This document shows positions 3-26,200 of a DNA stretch of 32,000 bases, in pieces (within the stretch, counting starts at the first letter, position 1; the number at the start of each line of letters is the position of its first letter). The DNA is from Geotalea daltonii FRC-32. Its GTDB lineage: Bacteria; Desulfobacterota; Desulfuromonadia; Geobacterales; Geobacteraceae. Location of the stretch: the NCBI RefSeq assembly GCF_000022265.1, contig NC_011979.1, positions 2,790,001-2,822,000 of the forward strand. Direction: 5' to 3'. The translations under genes were made by a program, and so were the position numbers. The notes beneath the pieces were generated by a model. It was not told where the DNA came from. It searched no databases and was given only the letters and a program-made list of their open reading frames with translations.

Positions 3-1532
3 ATGAGTTACTTCGACAACAAGGTCCCTCCCAAGCGTGAGGATCGACTGAAAGCAGTCATTGCCCATGAGGACACCATCTGCAACATGGCCAGAAAGGC
101 TGGCGGCAAGAGCTGCCTGATCGACGACGGGGAGCGGGGCTTCACCCAGGGATCAATCTGCCTGCTGCTGCCGGCGTTGGCCATGCTCAATACTCTGCCG
201 GACAACGTGGTGCTTCTGCACAGCGCCCTGGGATGCGGTTCCTGTACCCACTCCCAGAACGCCAATGTGCGGGTGGGGAGCAATATTCGCCAGGGTAAGG
301 CGAAAGACGGCATCTGGCTTTCCACGGCACTGGATGAGACCGACGTCATCAGCGGCGGCGAGCCGAAGCTGGAACAGGCCATCATCGAGGCCGACCGGCG
401 TTATCGTCCGTCGACTATTGCCATTGTGGCGGGCTGCGTGCCCGGCATCATCGGTGATGATATCGATGGCGTGGCGCTGAAGATCCAGCCCCAGGTTAAC
501 GCCAGACTGCTGCCGGTTCACTGCGAAGGCTTCAAGACCAAGATCTGGGCCACCGCCTATGACGCGGTTTACCATACCATCGGCCGCAATCTGCTGGAGG
601 AGCGGGGAATACATGATCCTGCACCGGAAGACGAACTTGCCGTGTTCCTGGAGCAGCAGCGCCTTGCCCGAACCGTCAACCTGATGAATGTCTCTTCCAT
701 GGGACGGGTCGACGAACAGGAACTGGAGCGGCTTCTCAATTCCATCGGCCTGGAAACCAATGTTTTTCCCGTTTTCTCCCATCCGGATTCCTTCATCAAG
801 GCCACACGGGCGGCCCTGTCCATCAGCACCTGCCCGACCCACGACGATTACTTCCTCGGCTATCTGCAGGAGCGCTTCAAGGTGCCGTCCATCATCAGGC
901 ATATGCCCATCGGCATTGATAACACAAGCCTCTGGCTGCGGGACGTTGCAGCTGTTTTCGGCGCTGAAGAGCAGGCGGAGCGGCTCATTGCCGCCGAAGT
1001 TGCGGAACTGAAAGAAGCATTGGGGGAATTCCGCCCCCTGTTCGAAGGGAAGAAGGTTTTTGTAAGTGCCGGTGAGTTCCGTGCCCTGGCCACTTCCCGG
1101 CTATTACAGGAAATAGGGCTGGAAGTGGTGGGAATCCGCTCCTTCCACCATGATGACTTCGCCAATGTGGAATATGAGAAATTGGCCGGTGAGGCCAAAA
1201 GCGACTATGTGGTGGACATTGCCAATGTCCAGCCCTTCGAGGAGGCAAACCTGCTCAAGCGGCTGAAACCGGACCTGTTCCTGGGACATGCAAACGGCAA
1301 CATGACCGCTGCCAAGCTGGGCATCCCCACCCATGTCATCTACAATACCGGTCTTTCTTACATCGGTTACCGGGGTGTTTACGAGGTCGCCCGCAGGCTG
1401 CATCGCCAGCTGAAGAATCCGTCTTACAACCGGAACCTGTCCCAAAACACCAGGCTCCCCTATACGGAGAACTGGTATGGGGCCGAGCCGTTTTCCTATC
1501 TGAATACCAGCGGGAGGGCTGTCAATGAGTGA
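3..1532 (+). CDS. Nitrogenase component-1-type oxidoreductase, NifD/NifE-like subunit
   Basis: 509-aa ORF. Three Cys sit in NifD/E-like cluster-ligand contexts (GFTQGSIC, HSALGCGSC, IVAGCVPGIIGDD), plus a PVHCEGFK motif resembling NifD VRCEGFRG. The stop overlaps the next start by 8 nt (ATGAGTGA). Confidence 0.8.
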   Translation: MSYFDNKVPPKREDRLKAVIAHEDTICNMARKAGGKSCLIDDGERGFTQGSICLLLPALAMLNTLPDNVVLLHSALGCGSCTHSQNANVRVGSNIRQGKAKDGIWLSTALDETDVISGGEPKLEQAIIEADRRYRPSTIAIVAGCVPGIIGDDIDGVALKIQPQVNARLLPVHCEGFKTKIWATAYDAVYHTIGRNLLEERGIHDPAPEDELAVFLEQQRLARTVNLMNVSSMGRVDEQELERLLNSIGLETNVFPVFSHPDSFIKATRAALSISTCPTHDDYFLGYLQERFKVPSIIRHMPIGIDNTSLWLRDVAAVFGAEEQAERLIAAEVAELKEALGEFRPLFEGKKVFVSAGEFRALATSRLLQEIGLEVVGIRSFHHDDFANVEYEKLAGEAKSDYVVDIANVQPFEEANLLKRLKPDLFLGHANGNMTAAKLGIPTHVIYNTGLSYIGYRGVYEVARRLHRQLKNPSYNRNLSQNTRLPYTENWYGAEPFSYLNTSGRAVNE

Positions 1533-2868
1533 GCATTTCGTCGAACGGGCACGTTACATGTGTTCTTTGGGGGGGGCGACCGGCACCGTAACCGCCCTGC
1601 CTGGTGCTATCCCGATTCTCCATTCCGCATCGGGCTGCGCCGGCAATTTCGCCTGGACCCAGAACGGCGGCAGCGGCCTTCAAGTGGGGGGATACTGCGG
1701 CTCTCTGACTGTTCCCAGTTCCAATATGCAGGAGAATGAAGTCGTCTTCGGCGGCGAGGATCGCCTGCGGGAACAGATTGCCAGCACCCTGAAAGTCATG
1801 GATGGCGGCCTGTACGTGGTCCTGACCGGCTGTGTGCCCGAGATGATCGGTGATGACATCTTTGCCGTCGTTAATGATTTCCGTGAAGAGGGTGCCCCGA
1901 TTATCGGCGCCATCACCGGCGGTTTCCGCGGCAACTCCTATTGGGGATACGACCTGGTGCTGCAGGCTTTGGTGAAGGATTTCCTTACTAGAGGCTTGTC
2001 CAAGGTGAAGGGGAAGGTCAACCTGTGGGGGATCGTTCCCTACATGGACCCCTTCTGGCGCGGCAACCTGGAAGGAGCCCGCCGGTTGCTGGAACTTTTG
2101 GGGCTTCAGGTCAATACCTTTTTCACCCCTGCCGATACCCTGGACAACATCCGCAGGGCCGGCGAAGCGGAACTCAATGTCATTGTCTCCGATATATACG
2201 GCCATGAAGCTGCCCGGCACTTTCAGGAGCGGCACGGCACTCCTTACCTGACTTTGCCGCTGCCCATCGGGCCATCGGCATCGGAGGAGTTTCTCCGGGT
2301 GGTGGGCGATGAACTGGGGCTTGCGGCAGATCAGGTGGATGGTGTCATTGCCGGGGAGAAGAAGCATTATTACCAGATCCTGGAGCCGCTCACCGATTGC
2401 TATAACGATCTGGACCTGCAGCGCTATGCGGTAGTGGTGGGTGACGGCAACTATGCCGTGGCCTTGAGCCGTTTCCTTGCCGATGACCTGGGCTGGCTGC
2501 CCGAACTTACCGTCTGTACCGACCAGGTGAAAGATGATGAGAGGGAAGCTATTTCAGCCCGGATAGATGGTTTTACCTCCGGCTACCGGACGAATCTAGT
2601 TTTCGAGACCGATGCCAGTGAGGTGCTGGGGCACTTTAATCGCCACTGGCCGCGTTCCAAGGGCGAGAAATATTACAACGCCTTCAGTCCGGCATTCGTC
2701 GTGGGAAGTTCTCTGGAGCGTGAGCTGGCGCTGCAGTTGGGAGCACCGCACCTTTCGGTATCGTTCCCGGTGGCAAACCGGGCGGTGCTTGATCGTGGAT
2801 ATACCGGCTTTCGCGGGGGCTTGCGGCTGGCTGAGGACTTGTTTTCTGCTGTGGTTGCCAACAGGTGA
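1525..2868 (+). CDS. Nitrogenase component-1-type oxidoreductase, NifK/NifN-like subunit
   Basis: 447-aa ORF with a GGGAGG RBS. Cys contexts are YMCSLGG, HSASGCAGN and LTGCVPEMIGDDI, as in the beta-type partner of D/K-like heterotetramers. Translationally coupled to the upstream ORF. Confidence 0.75.
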   Translation: MSEHFVERARYMCSLGGATGTVTALPGAIPILHSASGCAGNFAWTQNGGSGLQVGGYCGSLTVPSSNMQENEVVFGGEDRLREQIASTLKVMDGGLYVVLTGCVPEMIGDDIFAVVNDFREEGAPIIGAITGGFRGNSYWGYDLVLQALVKDFLTRGLSKVKGKVNLWGIVPYMDPFWRGNLEGARRLLELLGLQVNTFFTPADTLDNIRRAGEAELNVIVSDIYGHEAARHFQERHGTPYLTLPLPIGPSASEEFLRVVGDELGLAADQVDGVIAGEKKHYYQILEPLTDCYNDLDLQRYAVVVGDGNYAVALSRFLADDLGWLPELTVCTDQVKDDEREAISARIDGFTSGYRTNLVFETDASEVLGHFNRHWPRSKGEKYYNAFSPAFVVGSSLERELALQLGAPHLSVSFPVANRAVLDRGYTGFRGGLRLAEDLFSAVVANR

Positions 2869-2891
2869 AAATGATAAGAGGAGAAAATTAT

Positions 2892-3557
2892 ATGTCAGCT
2901 GATAAAGAAACCTTATTCAAGCAGTTGGCCGATGCGGTCGTGGATATGGACGAGGATCAGGCCGTAACCACAGCCGATGCGGTGGTTGCGGCAGGGCTTG
3001 ATGCCTACGAAGCCATCGAAAAGGGGCTCTCTGCCGGTATGGAGCGAGCCGGACAGCTCTTCGACGAAGAGGAATACTTCATTCCGGAACTGCTCATGTG
3101 TTCAGATGCCATGTATGCGGGCATGGATGTGCTCAAGCCCCATATCAGGCAGGATGCAGTGGCGGAAAAGCGGCGGGTAGTTATCGGCGTCATTCAGGGA
3201 GATACCCACGACATCGGCAAGAACCTGGTAAAGATCATGCTGGAGACATCCGGCTTCGAGGTGACCGACTTAGGAAGGGATATCCCGCCGGCACGTTTTG
3301 TCGATGCCGCCAAAGAGATCAAAGCGGACATCATTGCCCTTTCCACCCTGATGACCACCACCATGGACGGGATGGGGGAGGTTGTACGGCAGCTGAACGA
3401 CCAGGGGCTGCGGGACAAATTCAAGGTGATCGTCGGCGGCGGCCCAATCTCCCAAGGATTCGCCGACCGGATCGGCGCCGACGGTTATGCAATTAATGCT
3501 GCCGATGCCGTCCGTCTGGCCAGAAGGCTGACCTCTCCTGATGTGGCGGCAGCCTGA
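2892..3557 (+). CDS. Cobalamin-binding corrinoid protein (MtaC/MtbC/MtsB-like)
   Basis: B12-binding signature DxHxxG (DTHDIGKNLV), then SxL (ALSTLMTTT) and a GG (VIVGGGPIS). There is an N-terminal helical cap region. Start chosen at ATG 2892, behind AAGAGGAG, rather than the GTG at 2865. Confidence 0.85.
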   Translation: MSADKETLFKQLADAVVDMDEDQAVTTADAVVAAGLDAYEAIEKGLSAGMERAGQLFDEEEYFIPELLMCSDAMYAGMDVLKPHIRQDAVAEKRRVVIGVIQGDTHDIGKNLVKIMLETSGFEVTDLGRDIPPARFVDAAKEIKADIIALSTLMTTTMDGMGEVVRQLNDQGLRDKFKVIVGGGPISQGFADRIGADGYAINAADAVRLARRLTSPDVAAA

Positions 3558-4603
3558 TGGGCGAGGATAAAATGAAACCACTGGAGCGTCTTTCTGCTTA
3601 CGGCAAGGGGGAAACCATCGACCGGTTGCCATGTGTTCCCATTGTGGGAAATACGGCTGCCAGGGTGATCGGGGTAAAGGTTGGCCAATTCCGCGGCAAT
3701 GGGCCGCTGATCGCCCAGGCGCAGATTGCCGCTTACCAGCTGTTCGGCTACGACATCATTCGCATCTTCACCGATCTTTACACCCAGGCAGAAGCCATGG
3801 GGGCGAAGGTGCATTATCCTGAGGACGAAACTGCCTATCTTGAAGCTCCCGCCATCAATGACCTTGCTCATTTGGACCGTCTGCAGCCGGCGGACCCTTA
3901 TCGGGACGGAAATCTCCCGCACCACCTGGAGGCGATCGGAATTGCCGTGGACCGGCTAGGGACAGAAGTGGCGGTAACCGGGGCGATTACCTGCCCATTC
4001 ACCAATGCCTCGTTCCTGGTGGGGGCTGAGACCCTGGCGAGGCTGATGCTCAAGGAACCGGATAAGGTACACCGGCTTTGCGAGGTATCCCTTGAAACCT
4101 GTCTGCGCTATGCCGCCGCCATTATCGACGCAGGCGCTACGCCAAGTCTGACCGATGCCATGTCATCGTCAACGGTCATCAGTCCACGTCAGTTCAGGGA
4201 ATTTTCACTGCCGTATCTGAAACGGCTTATGGACTTCATCCACGGCAAAGGAAAGGGCGCCACCCTCCATATCTGCGGTAAAACGGCGAAGATCTGGGAA
4301 TCCATGGTGGAGGCAGGCGCTGACTGCCTCAGCATCGACAACGATGCCAGCCTTACCGAGGCAAAGCTGGCGGTGGGAGAGCGGGTGCGGCTGATGGGCA
4401 ATATCCATCCTTCTGCGGTGATGCTGCAGGGGACACCGGCAGATGTGCGCCGGGCTACCCTTTCATGTATCCGCGAAGCCCACGATAATCCTAAAGGCCT
4501 CATTGTTGCCTCGGGCTGCAGCCTCCCTACCGAGACACCTTTCCAGAACATTGCGGCCATGATGGAGACGGTGCGGGCCGTGGGATGGCCGGTGCGGTTT
4601 TAA
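3557..4603 (+). CDS. Uroporphyrinogen-decarboxylase-family (MtaA/CmuA/MtsA-like) corrinoid methyltransferase
   Basis: 348-aa ORF with URO-D-like length and layout. Zinc triad context H-x-C...C (ATLHICGK ... IVASGCSLP). The start overlaps the previous stop (TGATG); an alternative ATG lies at 3572 behind GAGGAT. Confidence 0.75.
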   Translation: MGEDKMKPLERLSAYGKGETIDRLPCVPIVGNTAARVIGVKVGQFRGNGPLIAQAQIAAYQLFGYDIIRIFTDLYTQAEAMGAKVHYPEDETAYLEAPAINDLAHLDRLQPADPYRDGNLPHHLEAIGIAVDRLGTEVAVTGAITCPFTNASFLVGAETLARLMLKEPDKVHRLCEVSLETCLRYAAAIIDAGATPSLTDAMSSSTVISPRQFREFSLPYLKRLMDFIHGKGKGATLHICGKTAKIWESMVEAGADCLSIDNDASLTEAKLAVGERVRLMGNIHPSAVMLQGTPADVRRATLSCIREAHDNPKGLIVASGCSLPTETPFQNIAAMMETVRAVGWPVRF

Positions 4604-4605
4604 TT

Positions 4606-4700
4606 CCCCCGCCCTTTATGGGAGGGGGTTAGGGGGAGGGCTCACATGCTACAATGCCATCCCCCTCTCCCTAACCCTCTCCCACCAGGGAAGAGGGGAC
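4606..4700. repeat. REP-like G/C-rich palindromic element between the two methyltransferase genes
   Basis: CCCCCGCCC-tttatg-GGGAGGGGG hairpin. Next comes GGTTAGGGGGAGGG (4628-4641) pairing with CCCTCTCCCTAACC (4663-4676), with one G.T position. It translates into the PLPNPLPPGKRG-type peptide typical of REP-derived false ORF extensions. Confidence 0.7.
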
Positions 4701-4720
4701 TTCTTGTAAGAGGTCTTTTT

Positions 4721-5743
4721 ATGAGTCTAAGTCCCAAGCAGCGCCTGCTGGATACAGTAAAGAAAAAGAAGGTCGACCGGCCGCCGGTAATCTGCACCGG
4801 CGGCATGATGAACGCTGCCATTGTCGATGTCATGGACAGAAGCGGGCATACTCTGCCCGAGGGGCACTTCAACAGCGATTTGATGGCCGCCATCGCCACC
4901 GATGTCCACAAGGATACCGGTTTCGAAAACCTGGGCATCCCTTTTTGCATGACCGTGGAGGCGGAGGTGCTCGGCAGCGACATCGACTTCGGCACCCTTG
5001 CCTGTGAACCGAAGATCGCTCGGGAACCATTCCCGTCGGTCAGGGATGTGGTATACCGGGATATTGACCGCATGCTCGGCAGCGGACGGATCCTAACGCT
5101 GGCCGGGGCAGCGGAGCGGCTGGCGAAGGCCCATCCCGACGTGCCGGTCATCGGCAGCGTCACCGGCCCCATCAGTACTGCGGCGTCCATTGTGGATCCC
5201 ATGCAGTTTCTCAAGGAACTTCGCAAGGAGCGCGAGGGGGCCAACAGGGTGCTGGATTATGTGAGTGACTTTCTTGTCGCTTTTGCCAGGATTTTGGTGG
5301 AGAGCGGCGCCACTGCCATCTGCATCGGCGACCCGACAGCCACCGGTGAGATTCTGGGACCGAAGATGTTTTCCGACTACGCCGTGACCTATCTCAACAA
5401 GGTGATTGACGGTATCCATGCCACTGGTGTGCCGGTCCTGGTGCATATCTGCGGCGAGATGAAGGCGGTCAAGCCCTCCATTCCACTCCTCCGTGCCGAT
5501 GCCATCAGTACCGACGCTTTCGTCAACCTGCGCCTTCTGAAAGAAGAATATCCGCAGCTGACTACCATGGGCAATGTCAGCACTTTTCTTCTGGAACTGG
5601 GAGACCCGGACAAGGTGGCTCGCCATACGGAAGGGCTGGTGCGCGAAGGCATCGATATCATTTCACCCGCCTGCGGTCTGAGCACCGCGTCACCGATTTC
5701 CAATATCCGGGCCATGACCTCGGTTGTGAAGGAGCCCGCCTAA
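4721..5743 (+). CDS. Uroporphyrinogen-decarboxylase-family (MtaA-like) corrinoid methyltransferase, second paralogue
   Basis: Start moved to ATG 4721 (MSLSPKQ, RBS AAGAGG) because 4646-4720 is REP sequence. Zinc triad context VLVHICGE ... IISPACGLS. Confidence 0.75.
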   Translation: MSLSPKQRLLDTVKKKKVDRPPVICTGGMMNAAIVDVMDRSGHTLPEGHFNSDLMAAIATDVHKDTGFENLGIPFCMTVEAEVLGSDIDFGTLACEPKIAREPFPSVRDVVYRDIDRMLGSGRILTLAGAAERLAKAHPDVPVIGSVTGPISTAASIVDPMQFLKELRKEREGANRVLDYVSDFLVAFARILVESGATAICIGDPTATGEILGPKMFSDYAVTYLNKVIDGIHATGVPVLVHICGEMKAVKPSIPLLRADAISTDAFVNLRLLKEEYPQLTTMGNVSTFLLELGDPDKVARHTEGLVREGIDIISPACGLSTASPISNIRAMTSVVKEPA

Positions 5744-5744
5744 G

Positions 5745-7415
5745 ATGGTAAATGTTCGTTTTCTTCCAGCCGATCGCTCCATCACCGTTGAAAAAGGGAC
5801 CACCATCCTGGAAGCGGCGCGGCTGGCCGGTGTCCTTATCGAATCCCCATGTAACGGAGCCGTGGTCTGCGGCAAATGTACAGTTTATCTGGACCCGGAC
5901 TCGTTGCCGCACATCGTCCGGCGCGGAGGCCATCACCTTTCCCAGCGACAGGAGCGGGCCGGGCAGGTTCTCTCCTGCGAGGCGGAGGTGATCGGGGATA
6001 TTGCTGTGGTCCTTCCAGAACTGGCGGAGCAGGATCTGAAAATAACCAGCCATGGCCGTGCCGTGGCCGTAGCCCTGGCGCCGTATGTCATCAAGGAATA
6101 CGTGGCGGAAAGGGATGTAACGCTGGTTTATCATGGAGCGGAAGTTGCCTTGGAGGAAGAAGGGGATACTGCAGGAGACGCATATGGTGTGGTGGTCGAT
6201 ATCGGTACGACTACCTTGGTCGTTTCCATCGTCGATCTGAATAATGGTGTGGAACTGGCCCATTCTTCGGCCCTCAATCCCCAGAGCCGCCATGCCCAGG
6301 ATGTCCTTTCCAGGATCAGGATCGCCTGTGACCAGAAGGGGCTCTCGGAGATGCGGTCCGGTGTGATCGGGGAGATCAACCGGTTGATCGATGAGATCGC
6401 AGGCAAGGCCGGGGTGCGACATGAGCGCATCTATGAGGTAATCTTCAGTGGTAATACCTGCATGCTCCACCTTGCTGCCGGCATTAATCCCCGTTCCCTT
6501 GGCCAGTATCCCTATAAGCCCGAACTGAACGGTGGCAATTGGCTCTCAGGGACAGAGGTGGGGCTTGCCATAGCAAAAAACGGTATCGTTTACCTGCCCC
6601 CCATCATTTCTGCCTACGTGGGGGCCGACATCACTGCCGGATTGCAGGCAGTACGGCTCCACGAGGAGCAGGGGACGGTTCTATTTGTCGACATCGGTAC
6701 CAACGGCGAGATGGCCATTGTCCATAACGGTAAGCTTTGGGCCACTTCCACCGCCGCGGGGCCAGCCTTTGAGGGAATGAACATCACCTTCGGCATGAGG
6801 GCGGGTGAGGGAGCCATCGAACGCTTTGTCATCCTCAAAGACGGCAATATCAGACTCAAGACCATCGGCAATGCTCCGGCTGTGGGCATCTGCGGCAGCG
6901 GTCTCATGGATATCGTCGCCGATCTGGTGGCCCACGGCATCATAACCAAAAATGGCAAGTTTGTTTCGCCTGATGAGCCCAATCTTTTTTCCCCACTTGC
7001 AGCGCGACTTATGAAAGTCGATGGCAAGCCGGTCTTCAGCCTGACCGATAAGGTTTACCTGTCCCAGAAGGACATTCGCCAGGTGCAGCTGGCCAAAGGA
7101 GCGATCCGGGCGGGGGTGGAGTTCCTGCTGCGCCATACGGGGGTAACGGCTGCTGTTCTGGACAAGGTGCTCATTGCAGGTTCCTTCGGTTTCCATCTTA
7201 CCGCCGAAAGCCTTGTCACCATTGGGCTTCTACCTCCCGAAACAGCAGGTTGCATCGAATTTGTCGGCAACACCGCCAAAAGCGGCGGCGAAGCTTTTCT
7301 CCTCAATCGTGACAGTCGCATGGAGATGCAGCAACTGGTAGCAGCGGTTCATGTGGTGGAACTTGTCAACTGTCCCGATTTCGATCGCATTTTCATAGAT
7401 TGCCTTTCCTTTTGA
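5745..7415 (+). CDS. Reductive activase of corrinoid enzymes (RACE/RamA-like; [2Fe-2S] ferredoxin + ASKHA ATPase domain)
   Basis: N-terminal plant-type ferredoxin Cys pattern (SPCNGAVVCGKCTV ... VLSCEA). ASKHA phosphate motifs VVVDIGTTTLVVS and LFVDIGTNGEMAIV. 556 aa, AAGGAG RBS. Confidence 0.8.
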   Translation: MVNVRFLPADRSITVEKGTTILEAARLAGVLIESPCNGAVVCGKCTVYLDPDSLPHIVRRGGHHLSQRQERAGQVLSCEAEVIGDIAVVLPELAEQDLKITSHGRAVAVALAPYVIKEYVAERDVTLVYHGAEVALEEEGDTAGDAYGVVVDIGTTTLVVSIVDLNNGVELAHSSALNPQSRHAQDVLSRIRIACDQKGLSEMRSGVIGEINRLIDEIAGKAGVRHERIYEVIFSGNTCMLHLAAGINPRSLGQYPYKPELNGGNWLSGTEVGLAIAKNGIVYLPPIISAYVGADITAGLQAVRLHEEQGTVLFVDIGTNGEMAIVHNGKLWATSTAAGPAFEGMNITFGMRAGEGAIERFVILKDGNIRLKTIGNAPAVGICGSGLMDIVADLVAHGIITKNGKFVSPDEPNLFSPLAARLMKVDGKPVFSLTDKVYLSQKDIRQVQLAKGAIRAGVEFLLRHTGVTAAVLDKVLIAGSFGFHLTAESLVTIGLLPPETAGCIEFVGNTAKSGGEAFLLNRDSRMEMQQLVAAVHVVELVNCPDFDRIFIDCLSF

Positions 7416-7708
7416 ACAGAGAAGGGGGGGCCTGATTCTGAGCCCTCACTACTGCAGTAAAAAACCAGATCCAGGTTGCCAGATATGTATCCAAAAGTAT
7501 TGCAACCATGGGAAACATGGTGTATATAGGAACAACTTGGATGACGTCTAACATGTTGGATTAACAGCATGTTATTTGGTTTTGTTAAGGTGGGTTGAGG
7601 ACGAGAGATTAGGTTCGTTACCCGGGAGTCGGACGTGCAAATCCTTCTCCCCGCAACCTGAAATTCAAGGGCTTGGACTTATGTCCGAGTCCTTTTTTGT
7701 CGTCTATC

Positions 7709-17683: not shown

Positions 17684-18814
17684 ATGCAAATTCAGAAGTT
17701 ATCAATAACCGCATTTCGCCCAATCATCCTGGCTTGCTTTCTTGTTTGCATAAGCCTTCTCCACTATCTGACACCGCTTCATCTCCCTTATCTTCACGAT
17801 ATTTTCCAGCGTCTCTACTATCTGCCGATAATTCTCGCTGCCCTATGGTTTGGGTTGCGTGGTGGGTTAATCTGCTCAATCCTTGTCAGCATTGCTTATG
17901 CACCGCATCTTCTTTTCCAGTGGGGCGGCCACCTGACCCTGGAAATGGAGAAATATCTTGAAATTATGCTGTATAACATTGTAGGGGGTGTGACTGGCCT
18001 GCTGTCCCAGCGGGAGCGGGAGCGCACAGTGGAGCTCCAGAAAACTGCCCGTGGGCTGGAGGAGTCATACCAGAAGCTGCAAAACCAATCTGAGCGTATC
18101 ATTATCATCGAGGAACAGTTGCGACGGGCTGAGAAGCTGTCTACCTTGGGAGAAATGGCCGCGGTACTGGCCCACGAGATCCGAAATCCACTCGGTTCAA
18201 TTCGTGGAACAGCCGAGATATTGAAGGACGACTACAAGCCCGGTGACCCGAAACAGGAATTCATCGACATACAGATCAAGGAGACCGAGCGTCTGAACCG
18301 GGTGGTGGAGGATTTTCTCCATATGGCACGACCACAGCCAGCTGACATGCAGCTCTGTCCGATTCAGGAAGAATTGGAAACAATAGTGGCTCTGCTTTCC
18401 AATGACGCCAGGGGACGACAAATTTCACTTGTGCTGAAACCGGCATCCGCCCCTGTAATAATCAGTGCCGACGGTGAAAAGCTCCGACAGGCTTTTCTGA
18501 ACATTATCATCAACTCCTTGCAGGCAACACCGCCGGGGGGCAGCGTAACCATAACGACAACCCCCTATGAGGCAGGCTCATGTGAAATCTGCTTCCGTGA
18601 TAGTGGCCCAGGAATAGATGCAGAGACGATGGACCGCATTTTCGAGCCTTTTTTTACTACCAAACCGGATGGTACCGGTTTGGGCCTGGCTATTACCAAG
18701 AAGATCATTGAAAGTCATGGCGGAACAATGCAGGTGGAAAGTGAAGTTGGTCACGGAACTATAGTCAACGTCATCTTGCCGATGCAAAATGCTTCTGACG
18801 GAGGATTGCGGTGA
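17684..18814 (+). CDS. Sensor histidine kinase with 4-TM membrane-embedded input domain (no obvious periplasmic domain)
   Basis: About 110 N-terminal residues form closely spaced hydrophobic helices. These are followed by a coiled coil, an H-box LAHEIRNPLGSI, an N-box INSLQA, and G-boxes DSGPGI and GTGLGLA. Confidence 0.85.
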   Translation: MQIQKLSITAFRPIILACFLVCISLLHYLTPLHLPYLHDIFQRLYYLPIILAALWFGLRGGLICSILVSIAYAPHLLFQWGGHLTLEMEKYLEIMLYNIVGGVTGLLSQRERERTVELQKTARGLEESYQKLQNQSERIIIIEEQLRRAEKLSTLGEMAAVLAHEIRNPLGSIRGTAEILKDDYKPGDPKQEFIDIQIKETERLNRVVEDFLHMARPQPADMQLCPIQEELETIVALLSNDARGRQISLVLKPASAPVIISADGEKLRQAFLNIIINSLQATPPGGSVTITTTPYEAGSCEICFRDSGPGIDAETMDRIFEPFFTTKPDGTGLGLAITKKIIESHGGTMQVESEVGHGTIVNVILPMQNASDGGLR

Positions 18815-20169
18815 AAGGAAAGATTCTTGTAATTGACGACGACAATTCGCTACGGCGGGTGCTGGAATACAACCTCAAAGAGGAGGGTTATGAAGTCCAG
18901 GCTGCCTCATCGGGTGAGGAAGGCTTGTTTTTATTCGGACAATCTCAGCCTGACCTGGTTATTACCGATATGAAAATGTCGGGTATGGATGGACTGATGG
19001 TGCTCAAGTCAATCAAAGAGCGTTCACCGGAGACTTTGGTGATAATCATAACCGCATTCGGAACGGTGAACATAGCAGTGGAGGCCATGAAAGCGGGGGC
19101 TTACGACTATATCACCAAACCCTTCAACAGGGATGAACTCAAACTGATTGTCCTGAAAGCGCTTCAGTTCAATGGGCTGGCTGAGGAGAACAAGCGGCTG
19201 AAGAGCCAGTTGTCGGATAAAACTGATTTTCGCACTATTATCGGCACTTCAAAAGAAATGGAGAAGGTTTTCGATGTGATTCGCAAGGTAGCCGACACTG
19301 AGGCTGCCATTTTGATTACAGGCGAATCCGGTACGGGAAAGGAGCTGGTCGCCCGCTCCATCCATGCTAACAGTTCAAGGAGAGAAGCTCCATTTATAGC
19401 CATCAACTGTGCCGCCATTCCCCGTGACTTGTTGGAGAGTGAACTTTTTGGCCACGTAAAAGGAGCATTTACCGGAGCACTGAGAGACAAAACCGGCAAA
19501 TTTCAATTGGCGGATGGCGGAACACTTTTCCTTGATGAAGTCGGCGAACTTCCGCTGGAATTACAGCCAAAGTTGCTCAGGGCTCTACAGGAGAAGGAGG
19601 TTGAACCTGTGGGAGGCACTAAGGTTCAGAAAATAGATGTCAGAGTGGTTTCAGCTACTAACGTCAATATAGACAAGGCTATAGCTAACGGTTCATTCCG
19701 TGAAGACCTTTATTACCGCTTGGCAGTCATACCGGTACACCTCCCCTCCCTACGCGAACGACGCAAAGACATCCCATTACTGATCAAATACTTTTGTGGC
19801 AAGCATGGCAGCGAGAATGTCACCCTCGAAAATAGCGCCCTTGAGACTTTGGTGATGCATTCCTGGCCGGGAAACGTACGGGAGCTGGAAAATACCATCG
19901 AACGTCTGCTCATTATGCGAAACGGTGATATGATTTCTGTTGATGACCTGCCGGATAAACTTCGCGAGAAACGTGCTCAGGGGACAGCAGTAATAAAACT
20001 GCCCGATGAAGGGTATCCTCTTGAGCAATTGGAGAGGGAAGTGGTCGTTGCCGCCCTGGAACGCAGCTCATGGAATCAGACAGCGGCTGCCCGCTTCCTG
20101 AGAATTCCCCGACATACGCTTATCTACCGAATGGAGAAATATGGCATTACTCCGCCGGGTCAGAAATAG
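18811..20169 (+). CDS. Sigma-54-dependent response regulator (NtrC/ZraR family enhancer-binding protein)
   Basis: The GTG start overlaps the kinase stop (GTGA). REC domain (ILVIDDD ... LVITDMKMSGMDG), AAA+ domain with GESGTGKE and the GAFTGA loop, and a C-terminal Fis-type HTH (AAARFLRIPRHTLIYRMEKYGI). Confidence 0.9.
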   Translation: MKGKILVIDDDNSLRRVLEYNLKEEGYEVQAASSGEEGLFLFGQSQPDLVITDMKMSGMDGLMVLKSIKERSPETLVIIITAFGTVNIAVEAMKAGAYDYITKPFNRDELKLIVLKALQFNGLAEENKRLKSQLSDKTDFRTIIGTSKEMEKVFDVIRKVADTEAAILITGESGTGKELVARSIHANSSRREAPFIAINCAAIPRDLLESELFGHVKGAFTGALRDKTGKFQLADGGTLFLDEVGELPLELQPKLLRALQEKEVEPVGGTKVQKIDVRVVSATNVNIDKAIANGSFREDLYYRLAVIPVHLPSLRERRKDIPLLIKYFCGKHGSENVTLENSALETLVMHSWPGNVRELENTIERLLIMRNGDMISVDDLPDKLREKRAQGTAVIKLPDEGYPLEQLEREVVVAALERSSWNQTAAARFLRIPRHTLIYRMEKYGITPPGQK

Positions 20170-20247
20170 GCATATTCCAAAATTTTTTAAAAGCCTTAAT
20201 CTTTGTGAATAAGAGCCGAAAGGTATCTATGGATGGGCTGCAGTGAC

Positions 20248-20275
20248 GAATATTCCTACCTTGTGGGGAATATTC
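20248..20275. promoter_or_regulatory. Putative enhancer (UAS): two exact GAATATTC palindromes 20 bp apart
   Basis: GAATATTC at 20248-20255 and 20268-20275, in the contexts cGAATATTCC and GGAATATTCt. They lie 58 nt upstream of the TGGCAC at 20334. Confidence 0.6.
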
Positions 20276-20333
20276 TCCACGCCTTGACATTCCGACCGCA
20301 ATAATAAATCTGCAAAATCAGTAAGATATGAGT

Positions 20334-20349
20334 TGGCACAACCTGTGTA
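20334..20349 (+). promoter_or_regulatory. Candidate sigma-54 promoter TGGCAC-N5-GTGTA (deviant -12)
   Basis: The -24 TGGCAC is perfect. The -12 position reads GT instead of GC. Placement relative to the UAS and to the cusC-like start (20392) mirrors the other three promoters. Confidence 0.45.
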
Positions 20350-20391
20350 ATTGTAACTGTATTGAATTTATGTTCATGTTTGGGAGCTTCC

Positions 20392-21717
20392 ATGAAAACA
20401 CTACACACGTTTGCTTTACTACTTCTATTGGCTGTTTCTCCATCCATGGTGTGGGCGGAAGAGGGTAAGCCGCCTGCCGAGGATCTCTCACGCCTCATCG
20501 CTACCGCGCTTGATAAAAATCCGGAACTCAAATCTTCCCAGGCCCGCTGGCAGATGTTTGCCAACCGGGTCAAACAGGCGTCGGCCCTTGAAGATCCCAT
20601 GTTCATGTTCAAACTGCAGAACCTGATGGCAAAGGAACCTTTTGCCTTCGATAAAGACCCACAGACCTCCAAGGTAATCGGCATATCCCAACAACTTCCC
20701 TTTTGGGGCAAGCGCGCTATCAAACAGGAAGTGGCACAATATGAGGCGGAGTCCTATAAATGGGCCATCGAAGAACGGAAACTTGAACTGGCCCGCATGG
20801 TGAAGGAGACATACTACCAGATCTACGCTGTGGACAAGTTTCTACAGATCATCGACAAGAACCTGCAGATACTGACCGATTTCATCACCATTGCCGAGTC
20901 CAAGTATTCAGTCGGCCAGGGGGTGCAGCAGGATATTTACAAGGCGGGTTTGGAAAAATCCAAAATGCTCGACATGCAGATAACCCTGAAACAGCAACGA
21001 CGGAGCCTGGAGGCGAATCTCAACTATCTGCTCTACCGGCCCGATACGACCCCCATTGGTAGAATCCCCGATTTCGATTTACCGAAACCGTCCCTGACAG
21101 CCGAACGACTGAAAGAAGCTGCTTTCGCCAAAAGGCCCCAGGTAAAAAGCCTGATCAGCCTGGCCAATAAGGGAGATGCCTCCCGCCGCCTGGCGCAAAA
21201 GGAGTACTACCCCGACTTCAATCTCTCCTTCGAATACATGTTCCGTGAGGCGGTAAATACTGAAATGATAAAAGATCCGGGCGACAACATGTTTACCGTC
21301 GGCGTCACGTTCAACCTGCCACTGCAGCGTGAGCGCCGACAGGCCATGGTTGCCGAAGCGACTTCCGAAACGAACATGTCTTTGGAGGAGCTCAACGGCC
21401 TGAAGAACAGCATCACCTATTCCATTCACGATATTCTGGCCCAACTGGAACGCCGGCAGAAACTGGTTGAACTGTACAAGGGGGGAATTATTCCCCAGGC
21501 TGAACAATCACTGGAATCGGCCATCATCAGCTACCGTGTGAACAAGGTGGACTTTCTCACCCTGCTCGACGGGCGGGTCAACCTGTTCAATTACGAGCGG
21601 GAACTGTACGACTCACAGGCTGAATACATGATGAAGCTGGCCCAGTTGGAAGCGCTTGTCGGTGGTGAATTGCCGGGGCCGGCTGGCCAGACTCCAGCTT
21701 TGACTGCGGTCAAGTAG
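20392..21717 (+). CDS. cusC: TolC-family outer-membrane efflux protein (CusC/CzcC-like)
   Basis: Start at ATG 20392 (MKTLHTFALLLLLAVSPSMVWA signal; GGGAG RBS). It has a two-repeat coiled-coil/beta-barrel OMF layout and is first gene of an OMF-MFP-RND triad. Confidence 0.8.
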   Translation: MKTLHTFALLLLLAVSPSMVWAEEGKPPAEDLSRLIATALDKNPELKSSQARWQMFANRVKQASALEDPMFMFKLQNLMAKEPFAFDKDPQTSKVIGISQQLPFWGKRAIKQEVAQYEAESYKWAIEERKLELARMVKETYYQIYAVDKFLQIIDKNLQILTDFITIAESKYSVGQGVQQDIYKAGLEKSKMLDMQITLKQQRRSLEANLNYLLYRPDTTPIGRIPDFDLPKPSLTAERLKEAAFAKRPQVKSLISLANKGDASRRLAQKEYYPDFNLSFEYMFREAVNTEMIKDPGDNMFTVGVTFNLPLQRERRQAMVAEATSETNMSLEELNGLKNSITYSIHDILAQLERRQKLVELYKGGIIPQAEQSLESAIISYRVNKVDFLTLLDGRVNLFNYERELYDSQAEYMMKLAQLEALVGGELPGPAGQTPALTAVK

Positions 21718-21773
21718 CCACCGACTTCATCCGTTCAGAACAGAAACAATTATCCATATATCGAGGTACGACC

Positions 21774-23159
21774 ATGAGTCTGAACAAGAAAATTGCAATT
21801 CCGTTGATATTTTTGCTGATTGCCGCGGCAGCTGGCGGGGGGTGGTACCTGTGGCAGCAGAAGAACGCTAAAACGTCGACTGGAAAGGATGCGAAGGTAG
21901 CTCAGGGCAAACAGCTCTATACGTGCTCCATGCACCCGTTCATCATCAAGGACAAACCGGGCACCTGCCCCATCTGCGGCATGGAACTGATCAAGAAGAT
22001 CGATGGAGCGGCAGGCAGTGGGCCGATGACTGCGGAACAAAAGCAGCAGGCGGAGATGATCGGTCACGTCTCCCTTTCCCCGACCCAGAGGGTCATGGCC
22101 AATGTGGCTACCATAGAGGTCAGGCGGCAGGATTTGAACAAGGAAATAAATGCTGTCGGCATCGTCCAGTTCGATCAGTCTCGCCAGGCCAAGGTCACCG
22201 CCTGGATAGGAGGACGAATAGACAGGCTTTTTGTTGACACGGTCGGCTCTTGGGTAAGTAAGAGCAAGCCTGTTGCTGAAGTCTACTCCCCAGATTTGGT
22301 GGCGACTCAGCAGGAATATTTGCTGGCGGTCAAGAGTCGCGACCAGCTGAAGAATTCCCCCATTGCCTCCATCTCCCAGAATGGTGACGGACTGGTGCAG
22401 TCGGCCAAGCAGCGGCTTCTGCTCTTTGGCGTCAGGGAAAAGCAGATTGCCGAATTGGAGAAGGCAGGTAAGCCCAATATCCGCCTTCCCATCTACACAC
22501 CTCTTTCCGGGATAGTGATCGAAAAGATGGTGCAGCAGGGGCAGTATGTCAATACGGGTGACCAGCTGTTCAATATTGCCGACCTTTCCAATGTTTGGGT
22601 GGAAGTTGAGGTTTACGAGAATGAATTCCCTAATGTCCATATGGGACAGAGGGTGGAAATCCGTTCCCAATCCTTCCCGGGCAAGTCGTTCAGTGGCAAG
22701 GTTTCCTACATCTACCCATTTCTCGATCCGAAAACGAGGACGGTGAAGGCGAGGGTGGAAATGCCCAATCCCGGCATGAAGCTGAAACCTGACATGTTCG
22801 TCAACGCCATCATCAAGGTCCCGCTGGGATCGGCCATTGTAGTCCCAGTCACCGCGGTACTTGATACTGGAACTCGTCAGGTGGTATGGGTGGAAAGTTC
22901 ACCGGGGATGTTCGAACCCCGTGATGTGAAGGTAGGACAGCAGACGGACGATAAAATCCAGATCATATCAGGCATCAATCCGGGTGACAAAGTAGCGGTA
23001 TCCGGCGGCTACCTGATCGATTCCGAGTCGCAACTGAAAGGTGGCGGCGGTCAGGATCACAGCAAGCATACGGGCAAGCCGGCTGCACCGGGACAGGCTC
23101 CGGCTGCTCCTGCTCCGCCTAAACATGATGGAATGAAGATGGATGATATGAAGATGTAA
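21774..23159 (+). CDS. cusB: RND periplasmic adaptor (CusB-like) with N-terminal Cys/His metal-binding module and Met-rich tail
   Basis: YTCSMHPFIIKDKPGTCPICGMELI heavy-metal-binding module. Then a typical MFP body (barrel-sandwich/beta-barrel) and a C-terminal HDGMKMDDMKM. Confidence 0.8.
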   Translation: MSLNKKIAIPLIFLLIAAAAGGGWYLWQQKNAKTSTGKDAKVAQGKQLYTCSMHPFIIKDKPGTCPICGMELIKKIDGAAGSGPMTAEQKQQAEMIGHVSLSPTQRVMANVATIEVRRQDLNKEINAVGIVQFDQSRQAKVTAWIGGRIDRLFVDTVGSWVSKSKPVAEVYSPDLVATQQEYLLAVKSRDQLKNSPIASISQNGDGLVQSAKQRLLLFGVREKQIAELEKAGKPNIRLPIYTPLSGIVIEKMVQQGQYVNTGDQLFNIADLSNVWVEVEVYENEFPNVHMGQRVEIRSQSFPGKSFSGKVSYIYPFLDPKTRTVKARVEMPNPGMKLKPDMFVNAIIKVPLGSAIVVPVTAVLDTGTRQVVWVESSPGMFEPRDVKVGQQTDDKIQIISGINPGDKVAVSGGYLIDSESQLKGGGGQDHSKHTGKPAAPGQAPAAPAPPKHDGMKMDDMKM

Positions 23160-23168
23160 AACATACCG

Positions 23169-23258
23169 ACCACGAAGTCACGAAGGTCACGGAGTAAAAT
23201 CCTCCCATATCTCGACCCATCATGCGCCTGTAATGGTTTTCTTCGTGTTCTTCGTGCC
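23169..23258. repeat. Inverted array of CACGAAG repeats between adaptor and pump genes
   Basis: CACGAAG appears twice (23171-23177, 23179-23185), facing CTTCGTG twice (23241-23247, 23250-23256). This predicts a long stem with a loop of about 55 nt inside the cusB-cusA spacer. Confidence 0.65.
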
Positions 23259-23288
23259 TTAGTGGTGAAAGGGTTATCAGGTTCTCAC

Positions 23289-26200
23289 ATGATCGAAAAA
23301 ATTATCGAATATTCCGCCCGTAACCGGGTCATCATCCTGATGATCTTCGGCCTGATCATTGCCTGGGGTGTCTGGTCGGTCTACAAGACCCCAGTGGATG
23401 CCATCCCGGACTTGTCCGACAACCAGGTGATCGTCTTTACCGAGTATCCCGGCCGGTCACCCCAGGTGGTGGAAGACCAGGTCACCTATCCCTTGGCGGT
23501 AAACCTGCAGGGACTGCCCCAGGTGCGCGCCGTGCGTGCCTCTTCGGCCTTCGGCTTCTCCATGATTTATGTCATCTTCGAGGACAAGGCGGACATCTAT
23601 TGGGCGAGGACTCGCGTTCTCGAACGGCTGAACTATGCCGCATCGCTGCTGCCGCCGGGGGTGGTGCCGACCTTGGGCCCTGACGGCACCGGTGTCGGCC
23701 ATGTCTTCTGGTACACCATCGAGGGGAAAGGCTATGACCTGGCGCAGCTCAGGACCCTGCAGGACTGGTTTGTCCGCTACCAGCTGAACACTGTCCAGGG
23801 GGTGGCCGAGGTTGCTTCCATCGGGGGCCTGGTGCGCGAATACCAGATCGACCTGGACCCCAACAAGCTCTTTGCCTACGGATTGCCGGTGGGCAAGGTC
23901 ATGGAGGCGGTCAAGGCCTCCAATAAGGACGTGGGGGGCAAACTCATCGAGCAGGCCGATGCCGAATATCTCATCCGTGGCCGGGGCTATGTGCAGTCCA
24001 AGGCGGACCTGGAGAACATTGTCGTCGGCGCCGACATGCGCGGAACCCCAATCTATGTGAAAAACCTGGGCACAGTGCAGATGGGGGGCGCCATACGCCG
24101 GGGCATGCTCGATATGAACGGCCAAGGCGAGGCGGTCGGCGGCATCGTCGTCATGCGCTACGGCGAGAATGCCAAGGATGTCATCGACCGGGTCAAGGTC
24201 AAGATCAAGGAGTTGGAGAAGGGGCTACCTCCCGGCGTGAAAATCATGGTCTCCTATGACCGTTCCGACCTGATCGCCCGGGCCATCGACACCCTCAAAC
24301 ACTCATTACTGGAAGAGTCCATCGTCGTTTCCCTGGTCATTCTCATCTTCCTGCTGCACTTCCAGAGCGCCCTGGTCATTGTCCTGACCCTCCCCATCGC
24401 CGTGCTCATCTCCTTCATCACCATGAAACTGATGGGGGTCACCTCCAACATCATGTCCCTTGGGGGTATCGCCATCGCCATCGGGGTCCTGGTGGATGCC
24501 GGGGTCATCATGGTGGAAAACTGCTACCGCCACCTGTCGGAGATGCCGCCGGAAGAGCGGGCGGCAAAGCGGCTCGAAGTGATCATCACCAGTGCCAAAC
24601 AGGTCGGCCGGGCAATTTTCTTTTCCCTTGCCATCATCATCCTTTCCTTTGTGCCGGTCTTCCTCCTGGAAGGGCAGGAAGGAAAGATGTTCCACCCCCT
24701 GGCCTTCACCAAGACCTTCTCCATGATGGGCTCTGCCTTCATCGCCATCACCCTGGTGCCGGTACTGATGTATTTCTTCATGCGGGGCAAGATGCCACCA
24801 GAGAGCAGCAACCCGGTCTCCACTTTCTTTATCAGGCTCTATTCGCCGGTCATTCGCTGGGTTCTGGTGTGGAAAAAGACCACCATTGCCTTGAACGTCG
24901 TGGCCCTGCTGATTGCCATACCCATGTTCATGAATCTCGGCTCCGAATTCATGCCCCCCCTTGATGAGGGATCGCTCCTCTACATGCCGGTCACCCTGCC
25001 CAACGTCTCCATCACCGAGGCGAAGCGCCTGATCCTGGTGCAGGACACCATCATAAAAAGTGTCCCCGAGGTGGAGCATGTGCTTGGCAAGGTAGGGCGT
25101 GCCGAGACCTCCACCGACCCGGCGCCGGTCTCCATGTTCGAGAGCATCATCATTCTCAAGCCCAAGGACCAGTGGCGGCCGGGAATCAAGAAGGCTGATA
25201 TCGTTGCCGAACTGGATGCCAAACTGCAGATTCCCGGCGTGCGCAACGGCTGGACCCAGCCGATCATCAACCGCATCAACATGCTCTCCACCGGGGTGCG
25301 GACCGACCTGGGGGTAAAGATCTTCGGCAATGACCTGAATGTGCTGAAAGATCTGGCGGTACAGGCGGAGGCGATCCTCAAACCCATTCCCGGTGCTGCT
25401 GATGTTGTTGCAGAGCGGGTTACCGGCGGCAATTACATCGACATCGACATCGACCGTGAGGCAGCCGCCCGCTACGGGGTCAAGGTCGGGGATATTCAGG
25501 ATGTCATCGAAACATCCCTTGGTGGCGAGATGCTCTCAACCACCGTAGAAGGGCGCAACCGTTTCCCGATCCGCATCCGCTACCTGCGCGACTACCGGGA
25601 CAGCATCCCCGCCATCCGCCGTATCCTGGTTTCAGGTATGGAAGGCGCCCAGGTGCCGCTGTCCCTGGTTACGAAGCTCAAGATCTCCACCGGAGCCCCC
25701 GAGATCAACAGCGAAGGAGGGCTATTACGTTCGCTGGTCTTTCTTAACGTCCGCGGCCGGGACATGGGGGGCTTCGTCACCGAGGCCAAGGAAGTGCTGG
25801 AAAAGCAGCTGAAGCTGCCTCCCGGATACTACGTGGCCTGGTCCGGCCAGTGGGAAAACCAGATTCGAGCCAAGGCCCGCCTGCAGATGCTGGTGCCGGC
25901 CGGAATCCTGATCATCTTCATCCTCCTCTACTTCACCTTCCATTCGGCACTGGAGGCGAGCATGGTCATGCTTTCGGTTCCTTTCGCCCTGATAGGGGGA
26001 GTCTATCTGGTATCGGCGTTAGGATATAACATGTCGGTGGCGGTCTGGGTCGGCTTCATCGCCCTCTACGGCATTGCCGTGGAGACCGGGGTGGTGATGG
26101 TCATTTACCTCCATGAGGCCTTGGACAAGAAGCTGATCAATGGCCCCTGCACCGAGCAGGATATCTATGATGCAACCTTCGAGGGGGCGGTTCTGCGACT

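Follow-up and report, generated by a model that had tools for sequence, protein, structure and literature searches.

We analyzed a 32,000-nucleotide stretch of the Geotalea daltonii FRC-32 genome (contig NC_011979.1, positions 2,790,001 to 2,822,000; hereafter the window), at the start of which the open reading frame (ORF) list contains a + strand operon of six genes spanning positions 3 to 7415. The operon encodes the D and K subunits of a nitrogenase-like enzyme, a corrinoid protein, two methyltransferases (MT1 and MT2) and a reductive activase of the RACE type. Sequence comparisons give good support to the D/K pair as a separate Group IV lineage of nitrogenase-like enzymes, which is distinct from Mar and Nfa and has an uncharacterised function, and they support a functional link of this pair to a complete corrinoid methyl-transfer module. 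The features of the locus are as follows.

Positions 3 to 1532, + strand: nitrogenase-like D subunit, 509 amino acids (Oxidored_nitro, E 3e-78), an exact match to G. daltonii FRC-32 ACM20890.1
Positions 1525 to 2868, + strand: nitrogenase-like K subunit, 447 amino acids (Oxidored_nitro, E 2e-70)
Positions 2892 to 3557, + strand: corrinoid (B12-binding) methyl-carrier protein, 221 amino acids (B12-binding_2 and B12-binding, DxHxxG motif)
Positions 3557 to 4603, + strand: MT1, zinc methyltransferase of the MtaA/CmuA family with a URO-D fold (URO-D, E 2e-94)
Positions 4604 to 4720, no strand assigned: intergenic spacer with an inverted repeat (inverted-repeat search and RNA fold)
Positions 4721 to 5743, + strand: MT2, methylcobamide:thiol methyltransferase-like protein, 340 amino acids (URO-D, E 2e-78), an exact match to ACM20894.1
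Positions 5745 to 7415, + strand: RACE/RamA-type corrinoid reductive activase (Fer2, Raco_middle and RACo_C_ter), an exact match to ACM20895.1
Positions 7667 to 7694, + strand: terminator-like hairpin, a 12-bp stem followed by a T-run (consensus scan only)

Neighboring genes of the operon overlap or are 1-23 nt apart, the sole exception being the 117-nt spacer with a hairpin between MT1 and MT2. The D and K genes share an 8-nt overlap at 1525-1532 (junction sequence ATGAGTGA) with GGGAGGG ahead of the K start, and K is translationally coupled to D via this overlap. For the corrinoid protein, the start is ATG 2892, which lies 23 nt past the K stop (2868), has an AGAGGAG Shine-Dalgarno site in front of it and is also the start given by the Logan gene call; an alternative start at GTG 2865 was discarded. 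The corrinoid protein gene and MT1 overlap by 1 nt, and MT2 and RACE are separated by a 1-nt gap. The start of MT2 at ATG 4721 yields the 340-residue protein found in GenBank and leaves the 117-nt spacer upstream. The 25-codon N-terminal extension that results from a start at 4646 is spurious and comes from reading through the spacer hairpin. Judging by the gene spacing, the D/K pair and the corrinoid module appear to form one operon and to be co-transcribed. An earlier reading of the same DNA (hereafter the original prediction) had described the D/K pair with its 8-nt overlap and cluster-ligand cysteines and had put all gaps but one at 0-25 nt; the coordinates, the overlap, the cysteines and the tight spacing were all confirmed.

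The scores of D/K against the nifE, nifD and vnfD equivalog models of NCBIfam are 3- to 9-fold under the cut-offs. The D subunit reaches 167 bits with nifE (cut-off 505) and 150 bits with nifD (cut-off 654), and the K subunit 70 bits with nifK (cut-off 427) and 45 bits with nifN (cut-off 327). The closest match of D in the Protein Data Bank (PDB) is MarD (9fmg_A, 210 bits, with NifD at ~100 bits), and that of K is MarK (9d9u_C, 294 bits, with NifK at ~61 bits). A Foldseek search with the AlphaFold model of D, which is of moderate confidence (pLDDT 66.6), also placed 9fmg_A at the top. The nearest solved relative by both sequence and fold is hence the Group IV-C enzyme MarBHDK of R. rubrum (PDB 9FMG/9D9U), to which the identity is 31% for D (RrMarD) and 37% for K (RrMarK). 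In a neighbor-joining (distance) tree built with 100 bootstraps from 50%-identity cluster representatives, Rhizobium NifD/NifE/NifK/NifN and a Chlorohelix BHDK locus, the core clade that includes the window D was monophyletic in 99 bootstraps and the wider superclade in 95. RrMarD fell outside this superclade in 98 of the 100 bootstraps and NifD outside the whole nitrogenase-like assembly in 90.

We transferred the ligand assignments reported for Mar, together with its chemistry, in PMC12552129 to D/K by a MAFFT alignment. All six P-cluster cysteines are kept: C53, C78 and C145 of D correspond to MarD 66, 91 and 158, and C13, C38 and C103 of K to Cys32, Cys56 and Cys121 of MarK. The cofactor ligand Cys270 of MarD aligns with C277 of D, the loop-I His429 of Mar aligns with H429, and the Mar residues Trp195 and His375 are kept as W182 and H382. 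All 75 orthologs examined retain C53, C78, C145, C277, H280-D281-D282, H382 and G428-H429 of D. The original prediction had named Cys277 and His444 as candidate cofactor ligands, and the first of these stood but the second did not. H444 is conserved in 70 of the 75 orthologs, in the core clade only, and precedes by three residues Tyr447, which aligns with the unconserved His442 column (loop II) of NifD. The alignment points to H429 and not H444 as the likely cofactor His ligand of D, and the predicted ligands C277 and H429 would carry an [Fe8S9C]-type cofactor.

These comparisons bear on the possibility that D/K is an ordinary or alternative nitrogenase or a scaffold (NifDK, NifEN or an Nfa-type system for N2 fixation) abutting an unrelated methyltransferase operon. 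Such an identity is suggested by the old GenBank annotation of D as 'VnfE-related', by the Oxidored_nitro fold and by reports that implicate Nfa systems of Group IV-A in weak N2 fixation. However, the equivalog scores, the position of NifD and NifE outside the clade in 90 of the 100 bootstraps and the unconserved His442 column rule out NifDK or NifEN, in agreement with the original prediction, which had treated the pair as something other than these two. The neighboring genes, described below, are moreover sulfur genes and not nif genes, and the association with corrinoid genes is kept across phyla. We consider this explanation extremely improbable.

The Nfa variant of this explanation requires a comparison of cysteine patterns. 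NfaBHDK, the Group IV-A system of Endomicrobium proavitum and Heliophilum fasciatum, is tied in the literature to nitrogen metabolism, whereas the context of the window pair is one of sulfur genes. The published cysteines are 50/53/60/78/81/146/257 in NfaD and 13/37/97 in NfaK (E. proavitum numbering, PMC13474568). Compared with these positions, the window D has its cysteines at 53/78/81/145/277 and does not follow the NfaD pattern. The pattern does occur, shifted by one residue, in the paralogs d2/d4 of three related loci (L049, L042 and P0141; we denote related loci by such numbers where needed), and thus fits a second D/K pair and not the window pair. Several genomes hold such a second pair, which is closer to Mar (D 38-47% identity) and whose clade includes proteins of Acetivibrio thermocellus and Syntrophobotulus. 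As both types of D/K occur in one genome, they represent paralogous lineages. Nfa-type systems are found in the same genomes as the window-type pair and at times directly beside it, which hints that they too belong to sulfur loci and may share H and B proteins with the window-type pair.

Second pairs near a window-type pair are located at L049:5853-8662, L042:12820-15746, L048:20052-21539, L037:13467-16288 and L005:17617-20078. The L049 locus has the order UROD-D-K-rSAM-NifH-d2-d4, with the second pair behind genes for NifB-like and NifH-like proteins. We also observed a third kind of D/K paralog, which is 46-54% identical to the window pair and belongs to the same superclade, within 10 kb of a window-type pair in two metagenome-assembled genomes of Bacillota/Clostridia (L027:16553-19462 and L030:560-2074).

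The other four genes of the operon make up the corrinoid methyl-transfer module, and all of its components named in the original prediction, namely a B12-binding protein, two URO-D/MtaA-type methyltransferases with H-x-C...C triads and a closing RACE/RamA-type activase, were borne out by Pfam domains and alignments. The corrinoid protein carries the DxHxxG motif as GDTHDIG and scores 209.6 bits with TIGR02370 (methyltransferase cognate corrinoid protein), slightly under the cut-off of 215.3. MT2 scores 385 bits with NF004889 (methylcobalamin:CoM methyltransferase), over the cut-off of 244, whereas MT1, with 206 bits for TIGR01463, is a more distant member of the MtaA/CmuA family. Both proteins align end to end with MtaA (4AY7), which is the top PDB match for each (E 3e-45 for MT2), and the segments LHICGK/ASGCS of MT1 and VHICGE/SPACG of MT2 align with LHICGN/APGCG of this structure. 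The resulting Zn triads, His238-x-Cys240...Cys321 in MT1 and His242-x-Cys244...Cys318 in MT2, are invariant in 24/24 and 26/26 members of the respective subfamilies, and the His-Cys-Cys site is kept in all 90 URO-D proteins of three subfamilies from related loci. PMC10418091 regards such a coordination sphere as the signature of S- or Se-methyltransferases. The RACE protein combines a [2Fe-2S] ferredoxin domain with an ASKHA ATPase and gives an AcsV-like score of 368 bits. We saw no gene for a tetrahydrofolate (H4folate) methyltransferase of the MtrH/MeTr type in the window or in L001, a Logan contig that reaches 10 kb upstream of the locus.

The module resembles MtsA/MtsB and MtaABC with RamA in its URO-D-fold Zn methyltransferases, its DxHxxG corrinoid protein and its ATP-dependent reductive activase. 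It differs from these methanogen systems in that MT1 and MT2 score under the MtaA and MtbA equivalog cut-offs, the context is assimilatory (CysK and an importer) and not one of energy metabolism, and the activase is of the bacterial [2Fe-2S] RACE type. Coenzyme M seems unlikely as a methyl acceptor in a bacterium of the Geobacteraceae.

A much closer counterpart is known from the literature. Kountz and Balskus (2023, bioRxiv, PMC10418091) described type I mlp gene clusters composed of a corrinoid protein, Mlp methyltransferases and a Ram/RACE activase, and found MarHDK-like genes of the nitrogenase superfamily to be prevalent in or near the clusters of a 'non-selenium clade'. In their supplementary table, G. 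daltonii FRC-32 has the label 'Non-selenium clade', and their tree includes a leaf named 'Mlp3, Geotalea daltonii'. Geomonas spp., G. hydrogenophilus, Geomesophilobacter, Heliobacterium, Heliophilum, Sporobacter and Syntrophobotulus are also in the table, and at least 11 genomes of our set of related loci appear there as 'Non-selenium clade'. The window locus is the G. daltonii copy of the non-selenium type I mlp gene cluster, joined to the nitrogenase-like D/K. It shares with this cluster the corrinoid protein, at least two MtaA-like Mlps with the His-Cys-Cys Zn site, the Ram/RACE activase, the lack of an H4folate methyltransferase and the sulfur-metabolism neighbors, including Mar-like genes. 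There is essentially no difference between the two, except that PMC10418091 labels the nitrogenase-like partner 'IV-A' and the window pair is distinct from the IV-A/Nfa-type pair.

The original prediction is therefore incorrect in stating that a wiring of nitrogenase-like enzymes to corrinoid methyltransferases is not known. The association of these genes has already been published as a bioinformatic observation that lists this very genome, and the idea of methanethiol release is the published one as well: PMC10418091 proposed that the Mar-like enzyme might make methanethiol as a methyl donor, the alternative being that both systems operate in parallel. To this our analysis adds the clade to which the D/K pair belongs, the ligand residues and signature positions of the pair and counts for the synteny. 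The link to corrinoid genes is not discussed in the literature on nitrogenase-like enzymes, and the term 'corrinoid' is absent from a 2026 Chem Rev review of these enzymes. We found no experimental follow-up to PMC10418091 in the literature and nothing relevant to these genes in that on G. daltonii.

To describe the synteny, we scanned one genome per species and kept the best 80 of 116 relatives, whose D subunits are 55-92% identical. They belong to the Geobacteraceae, Desulfuromonadales, many Bacillota including heliobacteria, Holophagae, spirochaetes, Planctomycetota, Desulfarculales and other taxa. The gene content of the loci was determined by tblastn and unsupervised clustering, and the counts refer to features within 10 kb in the 40 loci that have at least 8 kb on both flanks. 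A URO-D methyltransferase is present in 35 of these 40 loci, the corrinoid protein and RACE in 25 each, a CysK-like gene in 22 and a NifH-like gene in 19. The combination of URO-D with either the corrinoid protein or RACE occurs in 27/40 and the full set in 22/40. A NifB-like gene lies near the orthologous D/K in 18 of 81 clustered loci. Further recurrent neighbors are NifB-core radical SAM proteins, NifH-like and NifX-like proteins, MetY, MetQ, Rrf2 regulators, an SrpI-type encapsulin and SsuA-type importers. The search of a plasmid collection gave no locus of the window type, its only matches being NifD/NifE and a single Chlorohelix BHDK locus, which served as references in the tree.

The gene order is particularly informative. 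At most loci outside the Geobacteraceae, one URO-D subfamily directly adjoins D. In the loci L061-L065, the order 'CoP-UROD-(CysK)-D-K-MT2-RACE' (CoP, corrinoid protein) embeds the D/K pair inside the methyltransferase cluster, and a related order, 'UROD-D-K-CoP-MT2-RACE', occurs in L070 and L073. The interleaved order was found in loci of Anaerovoracaceae, Sporobacter, Syntrophomonas and spirochaetes. As the synteny is conserved across phyla and is partly interleaved, a chance adjacency of the two gene groups is refuted, and the interleaving of D/K with methyltransferase genes in several phyla points to a true coupling of the pathways. By this gene content, the conserved synteny would place the D/K system in sulfur assimilation.

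The same data can be read in terms of two parallel modules, the alternative raised in PMC10418091, in which the nitrogenase-like enzyme and the corrinoid system salvage sulfur or methyl groups from different compounds and are joined by co-regulation under sulfur starvation. Corrinoid or RACE genes are missing within 10 kb of D/K at 13 of the 40 well-flanked loci, the corrinoid module lies upstream, downstream or interleaved relative to D/K depending on the locus, and many further sulfur genes cluster with both modules. However, a URO-D methyltransferase stands directly beside D at most loci, and the interleaved orders are hard to explain without a common function, which makes the parallel arrangement distinctly unlikely in our estimate.

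Two additional gene types were observed in the related loci. Tandem genes for type 2A encapsulin shell proteins (SrpI-like, with a cNMP-binding domain) are found at L022:12193-13650 and likewise in L012, L018 and L023; they are directly downstream of D/K in L012, L022 and L023 and within the same locus in L018. SrpI is an encapsulin linked to sulfur starvation, and such neighbors would fit a control of the locus by sulfur limitation. A conserved truncated URO-D-like gene of 268 codons follows RACE at L062:15606-16412, as well as in L063-L065, L070 and L073, and its product matches only the central third of MtaA models.

In G. daltonii itself, the genes upstream of the operon on L001 all have the same strand as the operon. 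They encode, in this order, a NifX-like cluster carrier, CysK (TIGR01139, 479 bits, over the cut-off), an ABC ATPase, three SsuA-family binding proteins, two permeases and a QueG/RdhA-like protein. Judged by its gene content, the operon would be the end of a larger same-strand locus for sulfur scavenging, comprising the NifX-like protein, CysK, an SsuABC-like importer and the QueG/RdhA-like protein. With Mar it shares a gene context of sulfur limitation. The two differ in that the window D/K has no adjacent marB or marH in the window or 10 kb upstream of it and in that Mar operons have no reported link to corrinoid methyltransferases; some genomes, furthermore, hold both Mar-type and window-type pairs.

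The last of the upstream genes (L001:8619-9968) stops 32 nt before the D start and encodes a 449-residue protein, which is identical to a G. daltonii protein annotated as an 'iron-sulfur cluster-binding oxidoreductase'. It has no Pfam match over the threshold and gives weak QueG/RDH matches, and all 34 Foldseek matches of its model (pLDDT 68) with E <= 0.001 are epoxyqueuosine reductase or reductive dehalogenases. In the Geobacteraceae this gene lies upstream of D or downstream of RACE, and it is always accompanied by genes for a permease and an SsuA-like binding protein. The protein may be a third cobalamin-type enzyme of the sulfur locus.

The 24 kb downstream of the operon are unrelated to it and contain an MFS transporter, a MacB-type ABC system, a sigma-54 two-component system and CusCBA. 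The last two occupy positions 17684-26426 of the window, where a sigma-54 histidine kinase and an NtrC-type regulator are followed by a CusC/CusB/CusA-type heavy-metal efflux operon, in which CusB has a heavy-metal-binding domain.

The signals for transcription and its regulation were sought by promoter and terminator scans, whose results are weak consensus matches only. No terminator-like site was found between the operon genes and no promoter-like site on the + strand from 1346 to 7415; a 6-pair terminator-like match is located inside MT2 (5637-5654). The transcription unit probably ends at the hairpin at 7667-7694, which is situated ~250 nt beyond RACE. Upstream, a promoter-like site (L001:229-257) and a weak terminator-like site (positions 1825-1841 of L001) are candidates for the boundary of the operon. 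No cobalamin, S-adenosylmethionine (SAM) or other riboswitch was detected when the window, L001 and 13 related loci were scanned with Rfam. Regulation by RNA is thus unsupported, and the cobalamin riboswitch considered in the original prediction is absent from the scan of the window and L001.

The spacer between MT1 and MT2 (4604-4720) contains a 35-nt imperfect inverted repeat with arms at 4606-4640 and 4663-4697, which folds into a 22-bp hairpin (-66.4 kcal/mol, z -6.4). A second, small hairpin spans the Shine-Dalgarno site of MT2 and reaches the T-stretch at its start codon. The original prediction had considered the spacer to be filled by a repetitive extragenic palindromic (REP) element. 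This label is unproven, as a 15-mer of the hairpin does not recur anywhere in the window (32 kb) and is missing from 82 related loci. The absence of the 15-mer from these other loci makes the repeat look like a species-specific insertion. The hairpin might serve in attenuation or stabilisation of the transcript.

Taken together, these observations make it probable, in our judgment, that the operon serves a single sulfur-scavenging pathway, in which a C-S bond is cut by the nitrogenase-like reductase, the resulting methylthiol is demethylated by the corrinoid relay and CysK receives the sulfide. The data show the domains, the retained ligand residues, the layout of the operon, the clade of D/K and the synteny; we infer the substrate, the order of steps, the methyl acceptor, the identity of the cofactor and the regulation. 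Under sulfur limitation, a methylated organosulfur compound would be imported. A NifH-like iron protein, ATP-dependent and encoded elsewhere in the genome, would deliver electrons to the P-cluster and from there to an L-cluster-like [Fe8S9C] cofactor at C277/H429 of D, which would cut the C-S bond reductively in a Mar-like manner. One methyltransferase would then move the methyl group of the methylthiol to Co(I) of the corrinoid protein, thus freeing sulfide for CysK, and the second would pass it on from methyl-Co(III) to a thiol, for instance homocysteine. RACE would re-reduce the oxidised Co(II). A release of methylthiol with its methyl group passed to the corrinoid is plausible and fits the presence of CysK and an SsuA-type importer in the neighborhood.

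The same set of enzymes could also act in the reverse order, with the methyltransferases first demethylating a methylthio compound (candidate donors are DMS, methylmercaptopropionate, methionine and S-methylcysteine) and the nitrogenase-like enzyme then desulfurising the thiol by C-SH cleavage, which yields H2S for CysK. That CysK is the commonest biosynthetic neighbor (22/40 loci) implies that the pathway ends in sulfide, R. palustris Mar2 is needed for the use of ethanedithiol, a dithiol, so nitrogenase-like enzymes may take thiols, and the substrate-channel residues of D are unlike those of Mar. On the other hand, the one relative with a biochemical characterisation is Mar, which releases methanethiol by cleaving thioethers, and the sequence of steps is not fixed by any sequence data. 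We regard the reverse order as rather unlikely.

Several findings weigh against the single pathway with C-S cleavage first. A number of Mar active-site residues are replaced in D: Arg428 by Gly, His194 by Ile181 and Cys73/Gln74 by Ala60/Met61. The Gly at position 428 is found in 75/75 orthologs, where Mar has the Arg of Arg428-His429, proposed as its hallmark in PMC12552129, and a clade-specific motif, C-P-T-H-D-D-Y, begins at the cofactor Cys. These replacements and the clade's own motif suggest that D/K may act on something other than a methylthio-alkane. No nifH-like or nifB-like gene is present within 10 kb upstream, in the window or in the 24 kb downstream; the original prediction had correctly noted the absence of nifH from the window, but the gene does not lie just upstream of position 1 as it had expected. 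The R. palustris NflDK3 proteins, which are likened to the window pair only as an orphan D/K without its own H/B, were inactive on the volatile sulfur compounds tested, a result that likewise leaves room for a substrate unlike that of Mar. CysK could take methanethiol instead of sulfide, and the SsuA-type binding proteins suggest sulfonates as much as thioethers. To these points we add the 13 loci that lack nearby corrinoid or RACE genes and the co-transcription of the six genes, which is read from their spacing alone.

The separate D/K lineage with an active-site signature of its own possibly means a substrate unlike that of Mar, and we tentatively entertain, as a possibility short of probable, that the window-type D/K, a Group IV lineage that is neither Mar nor Nfa, performs a new reductive organosulfur reaction coupled to the corrinoid methyl relay.

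The function of uncharacterised nitrogenase-like clades is named as a main open problem in the 2026 Chem Rev review, and anaerobic routes for the assimilation of volatile and methylated sulfur compounds are poorly known. The locus offers a testable hypothesis, a C-S reductase with a corrinoid demethylation relay that leads to cysteine synthesis, in a cultured isolate, G. daltonii FRC-32. If the D/K pair does perform a new organosulfur reaction of this kind, the system would remove both the methyl group and the sulfur from methylated sulfur compounds without the need for oxygen; the sulfide would be passed to CysK, and the methyl group would enter a corrinoid-bound pool for reuse. This would be a catalytic role new to the nitrogenase superfamily and, for bacteria, the first methylthiol:corrinoid pathway of an assimilatory kind.

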